Shown here in pieces: positions 4,551 through 62,479 of a stretch of 64,000 nt of DNA; the stretch's first letter is position 1, and each line of letters opens with the position of its first letter. Under the pieces are notes generated by a model that was not told where the DNA came from, did no database searches, and was given only the letters and a program-made list of their open reading frames with translations. This DNA comes from Eledone cirrhosa. Taxonomy: Eukaryota. Where the stretch lies: contig OZ024743.1 of the NCBI GenBank assembly GCA_964016885.1, positions 309,690,001 through 309,754,000 of the forward strand, written 5' to 3'. A program made the translations under genes and the position numbers.

Positions 4551-6025
4551 ACACACATATATAGATACAGACATACAGACACACATACAACTGGTTTCAT
4601 TAACTGTAACTGTTTTTATATTTATCTTTCATTAACACCATTCTATATCTTTTTGGAAACACGCATTTGATATTTTACAGGTGTTCTCCGTCTACTCAAT
4701 CAATACACAATACAAACTATGGATTTCACTTCCTCTCTCTATGTTCTTCTCCTACACGTTCTTATCCTGTCTATCGACATCCAGACTCTGACCATACACA
4801 CACACACACCAACACCCATATAGGAACATACATATGCACAGACATGTACACCATTCCCACACACATGTAAAGACACCCACTAATACACTAACCCACAACA
4901 CCCATATACATACCACTCACGTTTCTGTACTTACTATTTAACACATGTTCACACAAACTCGCTTCTTTTCAGACACACATACTTACATCCACACACATAC
5001 ACACACTCACATTTAACACAGACACTCACACACCCACACATACACTTTACCCTCTGCCGTCTCTTCCTAGACTCTGAGTATTTTGCAGCACCCTCTATAC
5101 TCTCCCCTTGATCACCCCAAACACACTTCACACACTACCACACCCATGCCATCCCCCCCATCCACCCTGGACCTGTACCTCCTATCGCTTTTATTTTTAT
5201 TTTTATGTTTATCATCATTTTTACTTTGTAACTTCCCTCATTAAAACCCTCCTTACTCCTCCTTGGAGTACTTGTTCTTCCCCCATCCGAACTTTCCCGA
5301 TGAAAGGCATCTGTCCGAAACGTTCAATCCTCCGCCACTTCCACCAAGCGTGAACCTAATATAACTTTGTAGAATTTCAACTATATGTACATATACATAT
5401 ACAGGGAACGTTTCCACGAACCAAAGTATCGACTTCCTGTCTTCCTTCGGTTGCATCGGTTTTCGAAATATTTACTTCTGCGTTCACAGATTGATTTTTT
5501 TAGTTTCAGAAGATCCCGTTAAGGGTGAAAGCAGCGATTCTTTGCTTAAACTTTAATCTTTTATTTTAATAAATATATATATATATATACAACATGTTTT
5601 TCACACCTTTTGAATTCGTTACTGACAGCGATCAATTTGGAAATTTCGGTCCTAACTGAGGGAGTCTCTTGAAAAGCTCGGAGCCTCATGGATAATGCAA
5701 CGATTAGACATTTCCACAAAGTACGAACGAAACTATCGATAGTCGGGACTGGGAGAATGTTTGATAACGTTTATCTATTTTTTTTTTCAAACTTACATTT
5801 TAGACTTAGCTCCGTTACAGATTAAGAGGAAATACTACGTAAATTTTATCTGACTGTTCCTCATAAAGGAATATCGGTAACATTTATCTGTTATTTCTTC
5901 AAAGTTACATTTTAAACTTAGCTCCGTTTAAATGCTTATTTATCTGGTTGATTTCTACGGACTAAGAAGAAAAAAATTGCATAAATTTTGTCTGACTATT
6001 CTTCAAACATATCATTTGATATATA

Positions 6026-7490: not shown

Positions 7491-7600
7491 ACATATATAT
7501 ATATATATATGTATGTGTGTATGTGTGTGAGTGATACAAATAAACGAAAAAAGGTGACCTTTTATGGTTTTTAATGTCCATTTTTTCTTTTCTATTACAG

Positions 7601-7803
7601 GTCGTAAATTACAGCTATATTTATTGGTTGAACACATGGCTTCTTTTAAATCCTTGGTGGCTCTGCTGTGATTGGTCATATAATTGCATCCCTATTTTGA
7701 GTTCGGCTTGGAATATTCGGACGATAGCTGCACTTTCCTTCTGGATCTTGATTATTCTGATGACTTACAAAATTATCAAGCTTCGGAAGACATCGCTGGC
7801 ACG
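7601..7803 (+). CDS. TMTC4: Internal exon of TMTC4-like protein O-mannosyltransferase (DUF1736 region)
   Basis: Polypyrimidine tract plus TACAG acceptor, and CG|GTAAAA donor. It encodes [40 protein letters not shown]..., matching the TMTC4-type motif [21 protein letters not shown]. Its phase-2 end joins in frame to the exon at 42479. Confidence 0.9.
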
Positions 7804-8149
7804 GTAAAATATTTTCACCCTTTTCTTGTATCTATATCTGTCTATTCTTAGTCATGCCAATTTGCAAAGGGAATATGTTACTGTGAAGAGATATAACATT
7901 GAAACATGTCCCTTGCTTTCACCTAGATTTAGTCCCATTACACTACCTTTAAAAACTTGGATTAGCCTAGGCTATATGGATTAACTCTCTTGCATGTTTC
8001 CATGACAAAATACACCTAAAGGGACTTGCTTGCTTGAAAATGCGCTGCTATTTTCATTTGATTGGATTTTTCCACCACTCGCCACATTCAGACAGCAAGA
8101 ATTTATTCGTATCGAAACAGATTATGCTCTCCCCTTGGGTATTGTTATT

Positions 8150-42270: not shown

Positions 42271-42478
42271 TATCTGTGTGTGTATGTGCATATACGACTA
42301 TACATATATATAATAAATATATAAAATAAAGAAACAAATCTCAAATAGATTCCAACATGAACTAGACTAAAAATGTCTTCTGTCTAATGCCGCAATGCAT
42401 ATAATTTGTGCATGTGGTTAACATTCAGTAAAAATACTGCCATGGGAAATAAGTTTCAAATATTATTTCTATTTTCAG

Positions 42479-42656
42479 GAAAATCTCATTATCCTTAATA
42501 TTTTGGATTGTCCCGTTTACTCCGGCAAGCAACATGTTTTTTAGAGTTGGTTTTGTTATTGCTGAAAGAAATCTCTACCTACCCAGCCTTGGTTTCTGTT
42601 TAGCTATTTCACTTGGATTTTGTGTGTTACGTGAAACTCACAAACAACACTCTCAG
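42479..42656 (+). CDS. TMTC4: Next internal exon of TMTC4-like gene
   Basis: TTTTCAG acceptor and CAG|GTAAGT donor. It encodes (R)[47 protein letters not shown]..., the hallmark PF.PASNLFFRVGFVVAER.LY.PS motif of TMTC proteins. The frame is compatible with the exon ending at 7803. Confidence 0.93.
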
Positions 42657-42906
42657 GTAAGTCATTATTATATCATGCATACAATTGTAGTGAAATCAAG
42701 AGTTTCACTTCAAGCGGATTGTTTTCTCTTTTCCCTTTACTCATATGTACCCCCCCCCCCCTCCCCAATATATATATATATATATATAATAATAATAATA
42801 GTGAGTAAAATCGAAGTTGCAGCTTCAATTAGCATTTGTCGAAATCAATCTTCTGAAGCGGGCACAGAGCACCCAATGAGATGATATCGATAAATCGATA
42901 AATTAT

Positions 42907-45245
42907 AAGGCATATGACTTTTTATACAACTCCATATGAGCATGCTATTTTGTAATGAGGTTTTTGTCATAAAGAAAGAATTACAGTTGTTTTTTTGTAG
43001 ATTTTGAAAAAAATTCTTGCACATACTAAATTGTATTTTTAATTTTTTGGTAATTAGCCAGTCTCATAAAATAAATAACTAAAACAATAACTTATGACAA
43101 TAAAAAAATTATTTTAATTATTAGTTAAACAAAATTTAATCTCTAAGGTTCTACTACTTTTACAAAATGGCAAAAGGTCCTGCACAACTTTTACAGCTCG
43201 CTCAGCGCAAATGTTCGAGCGTTGCGTCTCAATTGGAGATTCTTCATTAGACCAAAATTTTCTGACGGTGTTTGCAACCTTTTCATACTTGGCCTTAATT
43301 AGTTGGTCAATTAGTTTCTGCTTGCTGTCAGCTCTATACAGTTGACTTGAGAACCACATTTTTCCCCACATTCCGCAGATGTATTCGGCACCAGCGCGCA
43401 GCTTCGCTCGTTCATCAGGCATCAAATTAGACCCAAGCAACAAATAAATTGCTTGGCTATTCCAACGAGCATTGTGTAAATTAGGTAATTTCTTAAAATT
43501 TATTTTAGGAATCGGACCGTTTTCAAAGAAATGTTGCACGGCTATCACGAGATACTGAAATAAATCCATGTCACTTCTCCAGCGCGTCGGGGTTTCATTA
43601 ATTTCCGTCGTTCCATTTGAAAAGTTCTGCTTCAGTTCGTCATAGTTCTTTAAAATGGCCTCAACAAAGTAATAATTGATATATGGCGAAGTTGTTTTGC
43701 TCCTATATAGTTGAGCAAAATAAACTTTCAAGGCACGGTCTAAAATGTGGTGCTGGTATACAACATATAATGGCTTGCTGTAACCGCGACGCGCGAACTC
43801 ACTGTTGAGCATGGCAACAACTCCTGCTTTTTGCCGGTATTGACACTATTTGTGTCGGAGACTATCATCACGATAGATTCCCACAGTTCATAGTAAGAGC
43901 CTTTCCATCAGTTAATGCCATCGGCCTCGGGCGTATTTCTTTCTCATCATTTTCTATCACTACAACCTGATATTCTACGTCTCATTCGTTTTCCATCAAC
44001 ATGAAGGCTCTATTTCTCCCTTTTGAGTTCATTTTTCCACTTTTCCATGAGTTTCTCACCTTCTCTGATAACTGCTTTGTGCACTGCCGACTGACTCGGG
44101 GTTCTTACCTTAATACCCCCACTTTTAAATTCGTTGTAAACTGCTGCTGCTTTTCTACTAGGTAATTTAGTATTTCTTACTAGGTTAACAGCATGAGCTG
44201 TGTTTTCTCTTTTTCGTTTTTTTTCTGGTGAAGGTGAAGGTGAAGATTTATAATCGCTGGTATTTGTATCAGTGTTACCGTAACTTTCATTTCAGTCCAG
44301 ATGAATGTATGAGCAGGATGGCTTATCATGATCTAGTTCTTGCTTTTTGTTTTAAATTCTCTTAAAGGATGGATTTTCATTTCACTGTCTATTTTCATTG
44401 TAGTATACCCAACCTTTCCACAACTCTCAACTTGCTTTTCATAAAACGACAAATCTTCGGCTGCTAACCATATCCCATATTTTTTTTGTAATATGAAACA
44501 GATTATTGAAATTCGCAGAGCCAGGTCTTTACACTTCTTTTTCCTTTTTTTAAATTATTTTTTCAATTTTTCGAGGTATTGAAAATTTGTTGATAGTTGG
44601 AAAGCTGAACTTTTCCCATAACCTTTCACATTCTCCAGTAATTATCTTAATTCTTTTTTTGGTATTTTTCTCTTCAGCAGCAAAAGTGATATAACGATCT
44701 GTTTCTCAGTAGGTAGCTTGCATAATTCGATTAATGAACTTTGAATTTTCGTTTTCCTAGATTTCTTTCTCTTCTCAAAATGACAAACATTTTGTGCCCA
44801 AATCTTCTCTTTAGCAAGTGGATTTTTAAACATCTGAAATTTATAATATTAATATAATATAAATATAAATATTAAAATATATTAATAAATATACCTCGCA
44901 AATTTTACTTTATTCTCTTTATGTATTTTATGAATTTTATGAATAGATTAAATAGACAAATAAGTGATGAACAAGCAATAAAGTTGATCCATTAAACAAT
45001 TTGAAGAAGGATACTATATTTGATAAACTGTTAAATTGCACATTATATTTTAATTACATACACACGTATATTGTATATGCAATTCTATATTAGTTAATCA
45101 ATGTTAAAGAATCTACCTTGTGCAAGAGTTTTTTAAAATTCTAATATTTTTTAACATGCTCACAAGTATTTTATAGTAAAAGTTCATCTGAAAATGGCAT
45201 GCTCATTTATTTTTTTAATAAAAGTGTACTTTAGGAATATGCCTA
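42907..45245 (-). mobile_element. Degenerate DNA transposon, probably hATm-like, with 9-bp TSD
   Basis: Termini AAGGCATAT...ATATGCCTA, flanked by ATAAATTAT (42898-42906, 45246-45254). Minus ORF 43114-43812 has QHHIL, HNARW and SNICAERAVK motifs. Upstream frames are broken. Confidence 0.75.
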
Positions 45246-49132: not shown

Positions 49133-50739
49133 CCTGATATTGTGGGGTTATTTATCGCCTTTAGACTCCAGGAAAAATTCAGCAATCTCCACGGCGGAAT
49201 ATACCGCGACGATGTTCTCCTCCTAGCTAAAAACCTTAATAACCAAAAACTAGAAAAACTACGCAAAGATATAAGAAAACTACTACTCGAAATAGGACTA
49301 ACTATAACATATGAATACAACCTTAAAGTAGTTAACTTCCTGGATGTCACACTCAATTTAAACTCTGGTTTGATTAAACCGTTTCATAAATTGAATGAAA
49401 ATCTCAAATACGTAAATGTTGGGTTTAACCACCCCATCTCTATAATTAAATCTATCCCTAAAATTATTTCCCTTAGAATCTCGGGTCTATCTTCTAACAT
49501 ACAAGTATTTAAGGAACACGCCGAGTACTACGATAACGCCCTTAGTAAAGCAAGCTACCTCAACAAAATAGAGTACATAGATGGGAACAATCAAAACACC
49601 CAAAATAAATCCCACATAGGTAGATATAATAACACAACACCAAACCACACTTACTACCATAGTATGCACACCAGTAAACCAACAAACAAAACTAATAGAA
49701 AGCGATGCAAAGAGTACTTATGGTATAACCCCGAATACAATAGTTCCATTAGTACAAATTTACCAGTACTCTTCTTTAAAATAATTAAAAGACATTTTCC
49801 TACATCACACAAATACCACAAAATCCTAAACCCTACCACTATAAGACTGTCATACTCTACAGCGTTAAACCTTGAACAACACATAAAAAAGATCAATACT
49901 AGAAGGTTAAACGAAAACACTAAAAACTTAAGTACAAAGAACACAAAAAAAACAGTAGACAATACACTACAAAACATAAATAAACCACACCTAAGTTCGT
50001 CCGCAATACTACTCCAGAGAAAACCCAACGTACACAACTGTAACTGCACCTATCGTGACAACTGCCCTCTCGGCAATAACTGCCTGGAAAAAAATATTAT
50101 TTATAAGTGTACCATTAAATCCGGAGGCAACGAGTGGTATTACGTGGGATCAACGGCAACATCGTTTAAATCTCGATTGTATAGGCACTCTTACTCAATA
50201 AAACACCAGAGCCAAAGAAATGTAACAACTTTAGCAGAAAAAGCTTGGACGCTCAGGGATAGCGACCAAAAGTTTACCCTAAAATGGGAGAAATTAGCTA
50301 AAACCCAAAGCTTTTCCAGGAGCCAAAATTTCTGCAAATTGTGTAATCTTGAGATTTATTACATAATCACACACAAGAAGAAACTGCTGAATAACAGAAT
50401 TGAACGAACATTATTCTGCCGTCACAGAACTAAAACCCTTTTTTCCCACTACAAGCCGAATATTACATAAAAGAGGGACATCCCCCAACTATATAAACCT
50501 TAATCTAGTTAGAAAAATATAAAAACAATCTCTTCTCAACATATATTAATAACCTTAAATTACCACACTAATAATGGAAAGATATGCTGATGAGAATAGG
50601 TGCAAATATGCGATAATGAATGTGTCTAAAAACGTCCATAAGTATGTATATATATGTGAAAATGTATATAAATAAGTAAATATATATATATGTTTGATGT
50701 GTATAGTTAGATGTAAGTGTATTCATGTATTAAAGTGCT

Positions 50740-52323: not shown

Positions 52324-52374
52324 AGATTCCTGATGATTTCTAATGAATGAAACAGTTCTAGTCCTGTAGAATCT
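52324..52374 (+). ncRNA. Type I hammerhead ribozyme (decayed relative at 41545-41596)
   Basis: AGATTC-CTGATGA-TTTCTAATGAAT-GAAA-CAG TTCTAGTC CTG-TA-GAATCT: 6-bp stem I, short stem II, 4-bp stem III, GUA triplet. Confidence 0.75.
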
Positions 52375-52823: not shown

Positions 52824-54983
52824 TCGAACATATGTGCTAAACACACCCCATTAAGAACTATAAACAAATCTAAGAGCAGAATCCCTAGAAATAGAAAAAC
52901 ACTCATCAGAAAAATTAAGAGAACGAACAAAAAAATCAACAAGCTGAAATACTGTCAGCAGCAACACATCAACTTGACTGCCATTTCATCACTAGAGATT
53001 AAAAAACATAACCTCCAAAACAACATAATGTCCCTCATCAACAATCAGAGAAGAGCTGAAGAGGCCTGGGCCATTGAGAAGATCAAACTCAATCCCAAAG
53101 TGTTCTTTTCATTTGCAAAAAAACACAAAATCACTGGCTCTACTGTTGGCCCTCTAATTGATGAAAATGGCACTCTTCAAGACAATGCTAAAACCATGGG
53201 TGAGATACTGCAGAAACAATACTGCTCTGTTTTCAGCAATCCTGATATGGCCGATCTGGGCTGTATCGGCGATGTTACTCCCCATTACACCTTATCGGAC
53301 ATAACGTTTGGCGCCCCTGATGTCTTGGCGGCAATAAAGGAAATCAAACATAATTCAGCAGTAGGTCCCGATAGGTTCCCTGCTTGTGTCTTGAAGGCGT
53401 GTCAACACCAACTTGCTTCTCCTCTTGCCAATCTGTGGCGGAACTCACTGGATGCTGGATATGTGCCAGAAAACCTTCTATCCCAGTCTGTTGTCCCAGT
53501 TTTCAAAAAGGGAAACAAATCCCTTGCCGTGAATTACCGTCCAATCTCACTCACCTCTCATATCATTAAGGTATTTGAGCGAGTGGTGAGATCGCGAATG
53601 ACCCACTTCCTTGAGAGTAACAATATGCTGAACTCCAACCAGCATGGATTCCGTAATGGAAGGGATTGCCTGACGCAACTACTGCATCACTTTGATGACA
53701 TTTTGAGAGCCTTGGGAGAGGGTTCCAACACTGATGTTATCTACCTTGATTTCAGCAAGGCCTTTGACAGGGTTGATCATAACATTCTACTGAGAAAGCT
53801 GTCCAATATTGGTGTCACTGGAAAGCTGCTGCAGTGGATCAAGAGCTTCCTGTCAAACAGAACCCAACATGTTGTAGTTGAGGGAGTCAAATCAAGCCCA
53901 GCCAAAGTCAGTAGTGGAGTCCCACAAGGCACTGTGTTGGGCCCACTTCTCTTCATCATCTATATTAATGACATCACTGACATCATCAAACACAGCAACA
54001 TTAAAATTTTCGCTGATGATTCCAAGCTCCAAAAGGTCATCAATGGCGTGGATGACCGGATAAGCCTTCAGTCAGACCTACTGGCTGTTACCCAATGGGC
54101 AGAAAAGAACAACATGTTCCTGAACGAAGACAAATTCGAACTGATCCACTTTGGAAAAGAGGATGCTCTGAAACTCCCGTACTCCCTTCCCTCCGGGGAA
54201 ACTCTCGTGGCATCTAACAACATCAGAGACTTGGGAGTAACCGTGGACAGCAACATAAGCTGGACCACGCATATAAGCAGCAAAGTTGACATGGCCCGCA
54301 GAATGTGTTCCTGGATCCTCAGAACCTTCCAGTCGAGAGATTCCCGCACCATTATCCTTCTCTTCTCTACTTTCGCCCGACCACACCTTGAATACTGTTG
54401 TCCACTGTGGTCTCCCCACACGAAACAAAGTATCATGAAACTTGAAGCTCCTCAAAGGGCAATCACGAAAAAGATAGATGGCATGTCAGACCTTGACTAC
54501 TGGGGTCGATTGGAAAACCTGAAACTTTACTCACTCCAACGTCGCCGTGAGCGTTATATTATCTGCATGATGTGGAAAATGTTCCATCATCACTGCCCAA
54601 ATGATGTTGGCATCGCCTTCAAGATACACCCAAGGCTTGGGCCCCGTGCTATCCGTCCCATTCAAAAATCTAAATCGCAACTCATAACAACAATACGGCA
54701 CAATTATTTCACCTCAATCGGCCCTGCTCTCTTCAACATCACACCAGGACACGTCAAAACAGAAACTGACCACACAAGATTCAAGAAGTCTTTGGACAAA
54801 TTCCTCCAAGTAATCCCGGACAAACCACCCACACCCGGATATGTCTCCGCAAACAGTAATTCTCTTCTCGAATGGGCCATGGTGCCCAAATCCTGAATTG
54901 AAAGACTTCGCCAGGTGGTGCTATTAAGTTAGACATGGCCTGGGCCAATACTGGCCAAAACATTTCAAAGTTATTCAAAGTTA
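52824..54983 (+). mobile_element. CR1/L2-group LINE, 5'-truncated, with intact ~690-aa RT reading frame (to 54896)
   Basis: [51 protein letters not shown] and SLQRRRER, with no stops. Short 3' UTR. Embedded in (TA)n. Confidence 0.95.
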
Positions 54984-54984
54984 T

Positions 54985-58816
<3,832 letters not shown>

Positions 58817-59676: not shown

Positions 59677-60246
59677 CACATATATATATATATAATAAAA
59701 AAAGTACAAAAATACAGAGATTACAAATAAATATATATAAAAATACAAAACAATAAAGGAACAAAAAGCCCGAAAAACCAAAAAAAAAAAAAGCAAAGTA
59801 TAAATACATCAAAGCACAATCAGTTCAAAAACAGGATGTACAGGCAGATTAAGAGAGTTTGCAAGCATGAGTCTGTGAGAAGAATAGTTGGTTAGCAGTG
59901 GTGCAGCCTTATATGTATGATGATCCATATCAGGGATGGTGTACTCCAATTATATCGCCTTGTAACGGGTCGATTCTCCTTATCATATCAGCACCCTACG
60001 AACCACATCGATATGTTCCAGTTCCGCACGTTAAGGGAGATAACACTATTATTCCAAAACCTATACCCAGGAGATTTATCACAATAAGCGGTCTGGGATA
60101 AAAGAAATTACGATGATTTAAAGAAATGTATGGTACATGTACAGCTGGCACACAAGTGAGAAAATTGAAAATACGCCAGGTCCGCAATAAGTGGCATTCC
60201 CCAAAGTCCTCACGTTCGGTCGCTCAACCCAACGTCCCAGAGGAAA

Positions 60247-60317
<71 letters not shown>

Positions 60318-60325
<8 letters not shown>

Positions 60326-61808
60326 ATAAATTAACGGAGCCATAGACTCTCGCCATTCACTGTAAATAATGTGTTGAGAGGAAATCCTGAGCTCTTTAAA
60401 ATACAATATGTTGAAACGGTAACACACTAGAGAGAGATACAGTGCGCTATCAATAAAACAGGGAAAAACCACCAGTGTATGGAATCTATAACCTATGAAA
60501 TGCAGACTATAGACACGATAATTAAAAATATAAATTAAAGCGTAAGTAAATACCTCTATAACTATATAACACACGTACAAATCCAAAGAGATCTGTTTCG
60601 CCAGTAAGTTGTTGACAGAAATGGAATAATGCCGATTCTTCAGCGTGTGTAAGGCTATACATTTCAGACAACACTAAGAGAAGAATTTTAAAGTGACTGT
60701 CCAGCTACACTTGGGAGAGAGAAGTCACAGCGTGTTTAAGGGCAGTGAAACAGTGGCCTCTGAGGGACGGGCTGCTAGAAAGGGCAGCCCAAAACCACTC
60801 AGAGAAGTGTGCTCAACCAAACAGAGAGAGAGGAAAGACTGTAATAAGGAGCGAAATATCACGATAAATTAACGGAGCCATAGACTATCGCCGTCCCCTG
60901 TAAATAATGTGCTCAAAAGAGAGAAAATCCTGAGCTCTTTAAAATACAATATGTTGAAAAGGTAACACGCTAGAGAGAGATACAGTGTGCCATCAATAAA
61001 ACAGGGAAAAACCACCAGTGTATGGAATCTATAACCTATGGAAGGCAGAATATAGACACGATAATTAAAAATATAAATTAAAGCGTAAATAAATACCTCT
61101 ATAACTATATAACACACGTACAAATCCAAAGAGATCTGTTTCGCCAGTAAGTTGTTGACAGAAATGGAATAACCCCGATTCTTCAGCGTGTGTAAAGCTA
61201 TACATTTCAGACAACAGTAATAGCGCACTGTATCTCTCTCTAGTATGTTACCTTTTCAACATATTGTATTTTAAAGAGCTTAGGATTTCCTCTCCTTTGA
61301 GCACATTATTTACAGGGAATGGCGAGAGTCTATGGCTCCGTTAATTTATCGTGATATTTCGCTCCTTATAACAGTCTTTCCTCTCTCTCTCTGTTTGGTT
61401 GAGCACACTTCTCTGAATGGTTTTTGGCTGTCCTTTCTAGTAGCTCGTCCCTCAGAGGCCACTGGTTCACTGCCCTTAAACACGCTGTGACTTCTCTCTC
61501 CCACGTGTAGCTGGACAGGCACTTTAAAATTATCTTAGTGTTGTCTGAATTGTATAGCCTTACACACGCTGAAGAGTCGGAGTTATTCCATTTCTGTCAA
61601 CAACTTACTGGCGAAACAGATCTCTTTGTATTTGTACGTGTGCTATATAGTTTTAGAGGTATTTATTTACGCTTTAATTTATATTTTTAATTATCGTGTC
61701 TATAGTCTGCCTTTCATAGGTTATAGATTCCATACAGTGGTGGTTTTTCCCTGTTTTATTGATAGCGCACTGTATCTCTCTCTAGTGTGTTACCCTTTCA
61801 ACATATTG

Positions 61809-61815
<7 letters not shown>
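60318..61815. mobile_element. Retrozyme-like non-coding ~540-bp unit: ~1.65 tandem copies plus ~1.1 inverted copies, three hammerheads
   Basis: TCACGATAAATTAACGGAGCC occurs at 60321 and 60859. From 61220 the sequence is the reverse complement of the unit and itself repeats (ATAGCGCACTGTATC at 61220 and 61762). (TA)n lies on both flanks. Confidence 0.85.
61563..61642 (+). ncRNA. Type I hammerhead ribozyme, canonical core (minus copies 60569-60650 and 61112-61193)
   Basis: CACACG-CTGAAGA-GTCGGAGTT...AACTTACTGGC-GAAA-CAGAT CTCTTTGT ATTTG-TA-CGTGTG: 6-bp stem I, stable stem III, GUA triplet. Confidence 0.88.
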
Positions 61816-61876
<61 letters not shown>

Positions 61877-62479
61877 AAAAGGTAAACAGAAATAACAACA
61901 CGATCGGTACAGTATATGTAAGGAATATATTAGGTTAACGCTTGAAATAGGAGGAATAGAGTCTTAACGTTTCGGATGCTAGTCCCCCATCAGAAGAAAG
62001 AATGAGAAATAAGATAGATTGAAGGGACGGGTTGAAATTGGAATAAATGTCTTTAGATAAAAATAACAGGTCCATTCATGTTGACATCTCATATATGTAT
62101 ATATGTGTGTGCCTGTGTGTCCATATGTGTATGTGTGTGTGAAGTGTTCATGGCTGGAAAGATCGCAAATGACGGTAGCAATTGATGCAGAGTAGGTAGA
62201 GTTACATGGTATAATTTCAACGGAATGTTTCTCTTCTTTTTGTCTTGTTAACAATCTTCTGTATATTGTGATACGCTCATCCTCATCACTAACCGCTAAG
62301 TCAATATCCTACCATGTGTATAAATAATTGCCTATATTCCTAAAGTACAAGTGTTTTTCGTATCAAGATAATAATCCTATTATTTCTCTATCTCATTTCT
62401 TTTTCTTTTCCGTTGGAATATTCGTGTTACATACTGTATTACGTGTTCCTACTTATAGCTAAATATTTAAAGAAATAAC

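Follow-up and report, generated by a model that had tools for sequence, protein, structure and literature searches.

Animal retrozymes and Penelope-like elements

Animal non-LTR retrozymes are tandem repeats that lack an open reading frame (ORF) and carry type I hammerhead ribozymes (HHRs); circles have been described in coral, mussel and axolotl, and Penelope-like elements (PLEs) are the mobilisers proposed for them (PMC7229834). The excerpts of this work that were consulted give a unit size of 150-450 bp and include a mollusc example, the mussel retrozyme, with a unit of 350-390 bp (PMC7229834). In a later study, likewise available in excerpts, units of 51-972 bp are listed from 35 genomes of vertebrates, insects and a coral, and it is argued that animal non-LTR retrozymes derive from the pseudo-LTRs of PLEs and are non-autonomous; one of nine Xenopus retrozymes cleaved (10.64898/2026.07.22.740005). 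How animal retrozymes re-enter the genome is so far a proposal.

The PLE literature, again as far as the consulted excerpts go, describes a characteristic insertion pattern. PLE insertions contain a partial tandem and an inverted 5'-truncated copy, optionally with a tail of 30-40 bp at one end, and they are biased towards microsatellites (PMC8557442), while the inversions are mostly head to head and pseudo-LTRs are enough to allow integration in trans (PMC3846280). In vitro, a purified PLE protein of lizard origin cut AT-rich DNA on both strands, extended both, and initiated reverse transcription at defined internal sites of its RNA downstream of the hammerhead; hammerhead cleavage was not required (PMC11167929). 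Most metazoan hammerheads have a helix III of only 1-2 bp, and a long helix III is found in fungal and protist PLEs (PMC4209133). For cephalopods the record is sparse. For the giant squid, 235 hammerhead matches to Rfam have been counted, which are given without description in the text available (PMC6962438), the word 'ribozyme' is absent from the available text of a paper on Octopus vulgaris repeats (PMC13282606), and no cephalopod or octopus retrozyme or hammerhead-repeat family was found in the literature searched, which covered few subscription journals or repeat databases.

The locus described here lies in a 64-kb stretch of DNA that was analysed as a whole and is referred to below as the window. 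Judged from its sequence, it probably represents one old insertion of a multi-copy non-coding unit which is copied in trans by the reverse transcriptase (RT) and endonuclease of a PLE and which belongs to the animal non-LTR retrozymes, in this case of an octopus. As far as sequence-level features go, the unit would correspond to the definition of such a retrozyme.

Organisation of the locus

A self-BLAST of the window reveals a direct repeat (60318-60680 versus 60856-61223, 93.5% identity) and an inverted match (60397-60993 versus 61815-61220, 94.0% identity), and no further copies of the unit in the window at E<0.01. These matches define two arms. The left arm on the minus strand is 901 nt long and corresponds to 1.66 units of approximately 540 nt, and the right arm on the plus strand is 596 nt long and corresponds to 1.1 units, which agrees with the original prediction of about 1.65 tandem and about 1.1 inverted copies. 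The unit itself is non-coding, measures 538-543 nt and has a GC content of 39.8%. Read in the sense of the hammerhead, the left arm begins with a 5'-truncated copy of 360 nt (La, 60857-61216), which is followed head to tail by a full unit of 538 nt (Lb, 60319-60856); La thereby occupies the position of the pseudo-LTR in a PLE partial tandem, and the 3' end of Lb at 60319 adjoins (AT)n at what proves to be the fixed end of the family (see below). The right arm begins with the terminal 137 nt of one unit (Ra, 61220-61356), reaches the phase of the fixed end and continues into 459 nt of the next unit (Rb, 61357-61815), which stops 83 nt before the fixed end.

The two arms meet head to head at 61217-61219, where about three bases, as read from the sequence, match neither arm cleanly. 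Both 3' ends in the RNA sense therefore face outward, the left one into an (AT)36 tract (60250-60321) that overlaps the end of the unit by a few bases, and the right one into a (TA)24 tract followed by (TG)n (61814-61862). The two tracts are the left and right parts of the target microsatellite, so that the proposed insertion into (TA)n is borne out; no target duplication is distinguishable inside the microsatellite. The locus thus displays the features of a PLE-type insertion, namely a partial tandem with a head-to-head inverted 5'-truncated copy, an AT-rich microsatellite as target and a defined 3' end. The outer end of the right arm counts against this reading, as it falls 83 nt short of the fixed end and the difference is longer than the PLE tail of 30-40 bp.

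Three CUGAAGA/GAAA/GUA cores are present, two on the minus strand starting at 61186 and 60643 and one on the plus strand starting at 61569, with predicted cuts after 61119, 60576 and 61636, respectively. Each belongs to a type I HHR motif (60569-60650 and 61112-61193 on the minus strand, 61562-61643 on the plus strand), and a type I HHR is thus found in two consecutive tandem units of the left arm, the second of which is 5'-truncated. The descriptor for type I HHRs finds no match in 2,000 dinucleotide-shuffled monomers, in keeping with the predicted hammerhead in every copy, and the predicted spacing of 543 nt between the minus-strand HHRs is exactly that of the cut sites at 60576 and 61119. 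A single weak descriptor match in the rest of the window, at 52330, has a weak stem II region of 12 nt and no similarity to the unit, and was rejected as due to chance.

The unit family in public sequencing runs

Seven of the ten public runs listed carry part of the stretch, under four organism labels and from three studies, and four of them (X1, X4, X7 and X8) were compared with the right arm (61220-61813). In X1, 2,752 of 16.3 million contigs match, 611 of them at an identity of at least 99% and 355 at less than 90%; the RAD run X8 contributes 2,845 matching reads, X4 eight contigs and X7 a single contig. The contigs of X1 and the other runs are short, so that no listed piece covers the whole stretch, and their depth is not a measure of copy number. 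Letters that are private to the right arm, for example those at 61441 and 61550, are absent or nearly so in X1, which therefore is probably not where the window comes from. The unit is therefore multi-copy as had been predicted, with variants in independent runs, and a single-copy local duplication or an assembly artefact is refuted as an explanation of the family. For the locus, such an origin is scarcely credible. Long (TA)n flanks and inverted repeats do trouble assemblers, and the inversion joint of the locus is not found among the joints listed for the runs, but the copies stand 4-7% apart with private changes, and the unit recurs in thousands of contigs across independent runs.

The ends and joints of the matching pieces (15 loose ends and seven opposite-strand joints listed, with 309 loose ends and five joints beyond those listed) provide information on the phase of the unit. 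Six of the listed loose ends are from X1, and of these five lead into diverged versions of the unit and one into (AT)n. The latter, (AT)n behind 61357, is the most frequent among those listed with 38 contigs, and the same end occurs in two contigs of X4. The phase 61356/61357 is also that of the border between the left arm and (AT)n at 60319, at a distance of 257-262 nt downstream of the cut site. The outer (3') end of the family is fixed and is located downstream of the HHR and away from the cut site. The original prediction that the unit is circularly permuted and has no fixed ends consequently fails for the 3' end, and its reading as a cephalopod retrozyme stands with regard to an ORF-less multi-copy HHR tandem in an octopus-like genome and falls with regard to the words 'circularly permuted'.

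The joint between the fixed end and the start of the following unit is present twice in the locus and once in a 419-nt X4 contig that also spans the HHR, and tandem joints are seen in X1, X4 and X8. Joints between opposite strands are found in at least five different forms in X1, each in one contig, among the joints listed. Two further listed opposite-strand joints from X8 were left out, so that five of seven are counted, because the read ends of X8 fall at TTAA sites. The piles of read ends in X8 (61343, 61346, 61528, 61679 and 61689) were likewise dismissed as restriction ends, as all of them are at most five bases from TTAA. The share of matches that continue into unlike sequence is 0 in X1, 0.06 in X4, 0 in X7 and 0.71 in X8, the last of which is discounted and may be caused by the TTAA read ends.

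The cut position 61636 coincides exactly with breaks in two X1 contigs, of which one has a deletion that starts there and the other has two extra letters. For the 20 listed X1 joint ends that do not wrap around, such breaks are expected by chance with a probability of about 0.0005 if one place is considered and of 0.012 if five are. The breaks, which were noticed after the fact, are only a hint of possible cutting and rejoining in vivo. X1 also contains deletion variants, one with a joint from 61345 to 61789 (depth 39.8) and another, which has a CUGAUGA core, with a joint from 61373 to 61582.

The copies at the locus differ from each other by 3.7-7.3%, with six, five and eight private changes in 277 shared columns, or about 2.3% each. 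This pattern fits a single source followed by independent, star-like decay of the three copies. The three copies also share letters that are in the minority in X1 (61573 and 61577), which would fit one source and also templates drawn from one subfamily. With a rate of 0.09 for 25 million years, as implied by the available text of the O. vulgaris repeat paper (PMC13282606), the insertion would be roughly 6 million years old. The copy at this locus is old and decayed, and the active source is probably a different one.

A satellite-like local repeat or a SINE-like element unrelated to PLEs would offer a different account, in which the HHR would be a relic that plays a passive part, and duplication at the DNA level and fold-back in an unstable (TA)n tract would explain the arrangement. 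The divergence of 4-7% between copies, the great abundance of (TA)n in the window and a hammerhead that may be inactive would suit such an element. The fixed end at (AT)n in two organisms, together with several inversion joints in separate contigs, argues instead for repeated insertions, and the three copies have decayed in a star-like manner that is consistent with a single event; an origin of this kind is very improbable.

Structure and predicted activity of the hammerhead

Stem I of the hammerhead comprises 7 bp, and stem III comprises 7 bp in the minus-strand copies (pair probability 0.85-0.99) and 6 bp in the plus-strand copy, which confirms the predicted stable, non-minimal stem III at a length of 6-7 rather than 5-6 bp. 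Stem II is less regular. In the motif at 60569-60650 it consists of an A-C mismatch and four pairs that enclose a loop 2 of 27 nt, and the closing 10.1-11.1 pair is likewise A opposite C in the motif at 61112-61193, a mismatch in both minus-strand HHRs that the original prediction had overlooked. Only the plus-strand motif has a G-C pair at this position, and its G is private to that copy. In X1, A at 61576 (10.1) makes up 99% and C at 61612 (11.1) 96% of the depth, and in X8 the same letters are found in 238 of 248 and 333 of 371 reads, respectively. The conserved G10.1-C11.1 pair of canonical type I HHRs is hence absent in most copies and, because A and C dominate both the X1 depth and the X8 reads, the closing mismatch is a trait of the family and not a product of decay. 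A subfamily with a CUGAUGA core has a stem II of four pairs closed by A-U; it occurs on separate loose ends and reads as well as in X4, and its matched stem II suggests selection on the fold.

Whether this hammerhead cleaves itself is doubtful, given the A-C closing pair, a disfavoured predicted fold and the lack of an Rfam match. When folded in context, stem II has a pair probability of 0 and stem I of 0.02-0.34, and the active fold is not predicted to be the most stable one. Rfam models do not back the predicted hammerhead, as none reaches the gathering score across the window and none is among the 15 matches at E<=10 in 60200-61900. No passage on the 10.1-11.1 pair was found in the available text of a published study of pairwise HHR mutants. 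A pattern scan for the HHR core gave no match in viral contigs and none in genome contigs; two loci in metagenome contigs, with 63-64% GC and no further similarity, were put down to chance.

A leader upstream of stem I (61540-61552 on the plus strand) is predicted to be complementary to loop 2 (61589-61601), with 10 of 13 positions paired in the plus-strand copy and 11 of 13 in the minus-strand copies. The pairing has an energy of -12.3 kcal/mol, which is matched by 14 of 2,000 shuffles, and the leader is the best site in the left arm; no compensatory change is seen in it. It could form a pseudoknot, a feature which in the available text of one study is reported for about 40% of hammerheads (PMC3088659), or alternatively a blocking fold. 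The inner end of the left arm (61216) lies one base before the phase of this leader, which may be chance. The 543-nt monomer as a whole folds better than shuffled sequences (z -3.3, 0 of 100), and an RNA reading through the locus is predicted to contain 570 pairs between the arms, a duplex which would bury the ribozymes.

Coding capacity and a possible origin from PLE debris

The longest stop-free frame of the unit has 115-118 codons, passes across the HHR in each of the three copies and lacks a start codon near its beginning. Its length is equalled by 84 of 2,000 shuffles, and a search of 1.84 billion representatives and of longer proteins yielded no homologue, so that a coding role was rejected and the description of the unit as ORF-less is upheld. 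No ORF for an RT or a GIY-YIG endonuclease is present in the locus.

These observations bear on the possibility that the locus is debris of an ORF-bearing PLE, in which the unit would be the pseudo-LTR and stacks without an ORF would arise through 5' truncation, and no self-propagating non-autonomous family would exist. In favour of this, ordinary PLE insertions have the same layout, and 5' truncation is described for most PLE copies in the excerpts consulted. The stop-free frame through the HHR is common to all three copies, the ORFs of PLEs can start at the HHR (PMC11167929, available in part), and the short contigs and partly listed loose ends could have allowed a rare ORF-bearing form to be missed. 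In addition, the summed X1 depth averages 126k over 61640-61759 and 32k over 61360-61639, a roughly fourfold difference that truncation anchored at the 3' end would produce. This step at approximately 61640 and a second one at about 61280 would also be expected from 5' ends close to the cut site and from a further start site; neither is present in X4, and contig depth does not represent copy number. Truncation would moreover be expected to produce variable joints, yet the identical end-to-start joint is found twice in the locus and again in another organism, and branches into unlike sequence are lacking in X1 (0) and few in X4 (0.06). The frame has neither a start codon near its beginning nor a homologue, its length is attained by shuffled sequences, and the HHR differs from the minimal type of PLEs. 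An origin from PLE debris is therefore judged unlikely.

Genomic context

Two exons resembling TMTC4 are located on the plus strand of the window (7586-7804 and 42468-42659), the second of which has its best matches, at 88-91% identity, in the TMTC4 proteins of Octopus sinensis and O. vulgaris. The last 240 residues of TMTC4 were not found in the 64-kb window, and the hammerhead element probably lies in the TMTC4-like intron that follows 42468-42659.

Several other elements surround it. A 5'-truncated ORF (49136-50467, plus strand) and a fragment (22969-23375, plus strand) show about 35-44% identity to unnamed proteins; the ORF has 27 unnamed relatives at 27-48% identity and (TA)n at its 5' side. 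The Atlas neighbours of both include GIY-YIG (21-27% of members) and RVT_1 (13%) clusters, and no Pfam or PDB match was found for the ORF. Partly from their motifs and partly from these Atlas leads, we take both to be PLE-like RT/GIY-YIG sequences. Broken frames at 16380-17501 on the minus strand contain a Cys-rich linker and a GIY-YIG-like string, and by these motifs presumably resemble a Neptune-type PLE. The PLE remnants of the window have no DNA similarity to the unit, and no autonomous PLE partner with a unit-like terminal repeat is present in the 64 kb. Decayed strings that resemble a hammerhead core or a minimal hammerhead are seen near 50585 (after the ORF at 49136-50467), near 16070 (downstream of the frames at 16380-17501) and, by eye, at about 5297-5330 on the plus strand, the last with a short palindromic helix III region. 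A 686-codon open frame at 52836-54896 (plus strand) matches RVT_1 (E 1.7e-31) and belongs to a non-LTR retroelement situated between long (TA)n-rich tracts, one of which (54982-58816) spans 3.8 kb and has flanking sequence repeated within it near 55970-56070. A further open frame of 243 codons (43114-43845, minus strand) is probably derived from a transposon. (TA)n tracts are very abundant throughout the window.

Proposed mechanism of insertion

The layout, the fixed end, the (TA)n target and the occurrence of PLE-like remnants in the window support the earlier proposal that PLE machinery is the likely mobiliser of the unit. It is envisaged that an RNA longer than the unit is transcribed from a tandem source and that the PLE protein, having nicked (TA)n, initiates reverse transcription at a particular site inside this RNA, which would create the fixed end. 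Reverse transcription would then proceed back through the HHR and across the joint between units to a variable stop, resulting in a partial tandem, and priming from the other DNA strand would give rise to the inverted arm. After insertion the three copies would have decayed independently, by about 2.3% each.

Two templates could serve in this scheme, an uncut multimer or a 540-nt circle that is generated by self-cleavage and re-ligation. Internal initiation works on either, and the locus itself cannot choose between them. The tandem and inverted layout is the ordinary insertion pattern of PLEs and therefore provides no evidence for a circle; by analogy, the published PLE findings can account for every feature of the locus without one. 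Leaning towards an uncut multimer are the predicted fold, the A-C pair and the finding that one in nine Xenopus retrozymes cleaved; leaning towards cleavage are the length of stem III, the conservation of the core and the pair of breaks at the cut site. On balance the multimer is slightly favoured. The fuller version of the circle model is rather unlikely. According to this model the hammerhead would be a new variant, with a 7-bp stem III, an A-C pair and a 27-nt loop 2 locked to the leader, the unit would be the first cephalopod retrozyme, and the re-ligated 540-nt circle would be copied by a Penelope RT from a fixed internal site and past the ligation point. If this were true, the thousands of copies, with the scars they bear at the scissile bond and their mapped start phase, would amount to a genomic record of circle-templated retrotransposition.

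Comparison with known systems

The unit resembles the animal non-LTR retrozymes in that it forms ORF-less tandems with one type I HHR per unit, has a GC content below 50%, is present in many copies and has a PLE as proposed mobiliser. With 538-543 nt it is larger than the 150-450 bp given in 2020 and falls within the 51-972 bp given in 2026. Unlike these retrozymes it has a stem III of 6-7 bp, a loop 2 of 27 nt and, in most copies, an A-C mismatch that closes stem II. The short partial tandems, inverted arms and fixed end likewise set it apart, as they are not described in the available text of either retrozyme study (PMC7229834, 10.64898/2026.07.22.740005). Circles are expressed from the described retrozymes, whereas the present unit is known from DNA.

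With the endonuclease-bearing PLEs and their pseudo-LTRs the unit shares the partial tandem, the head-to-head inverted 5'-truncated copy, the (TA)n target, a defined initiation point for reverse transcription that lies downstream of the HHR, proposed in the case of the unit, and unequal ends. It differs from the elements themselves in the absence of an RT/GIY-YIG ORF, in an end difference of 83 nt rather than a 30-40-bp tail, and in an HHR that is not of the minimal dimer type. Its type I topology and CUGANGA/GAAA core are those of PLE HHRs, and its large helix III is reminiscent of fungal and protist PLEs as far as these are covered by the excerpts consulted (PMC4209133). The minimal HHRs of metazoan PLEs, in contrast, have a palindromic helix III that requires a dimer, which the unit does not possess, and the G10.1-C11.1 pair is missing from most of its copies. 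A further parallel is MRC1 of Chlamydomonas reinhardtii, the non-coding units of which form pseudo-LTRs and head-to-tail insertions; in the available text canonical HHRs are reported to be absent from most Chlamys elements, unlike the present unit with its HHR motifs (PMC8557442).

The unit family combines the full insertion signature of a PLE with the lack of an ORF and with a start phase that is fixed away from the cut site of the ribozyme. The fixed phase would tie the spread of retrozymes to the internal initiation that a PLE protein shows in vitro, and it allows the question of circle versus multimer to be tested on young copies. As a probable retrozyme, the family would extend this kind of animal element to the octopus and add an unusual hammerhead to those described.
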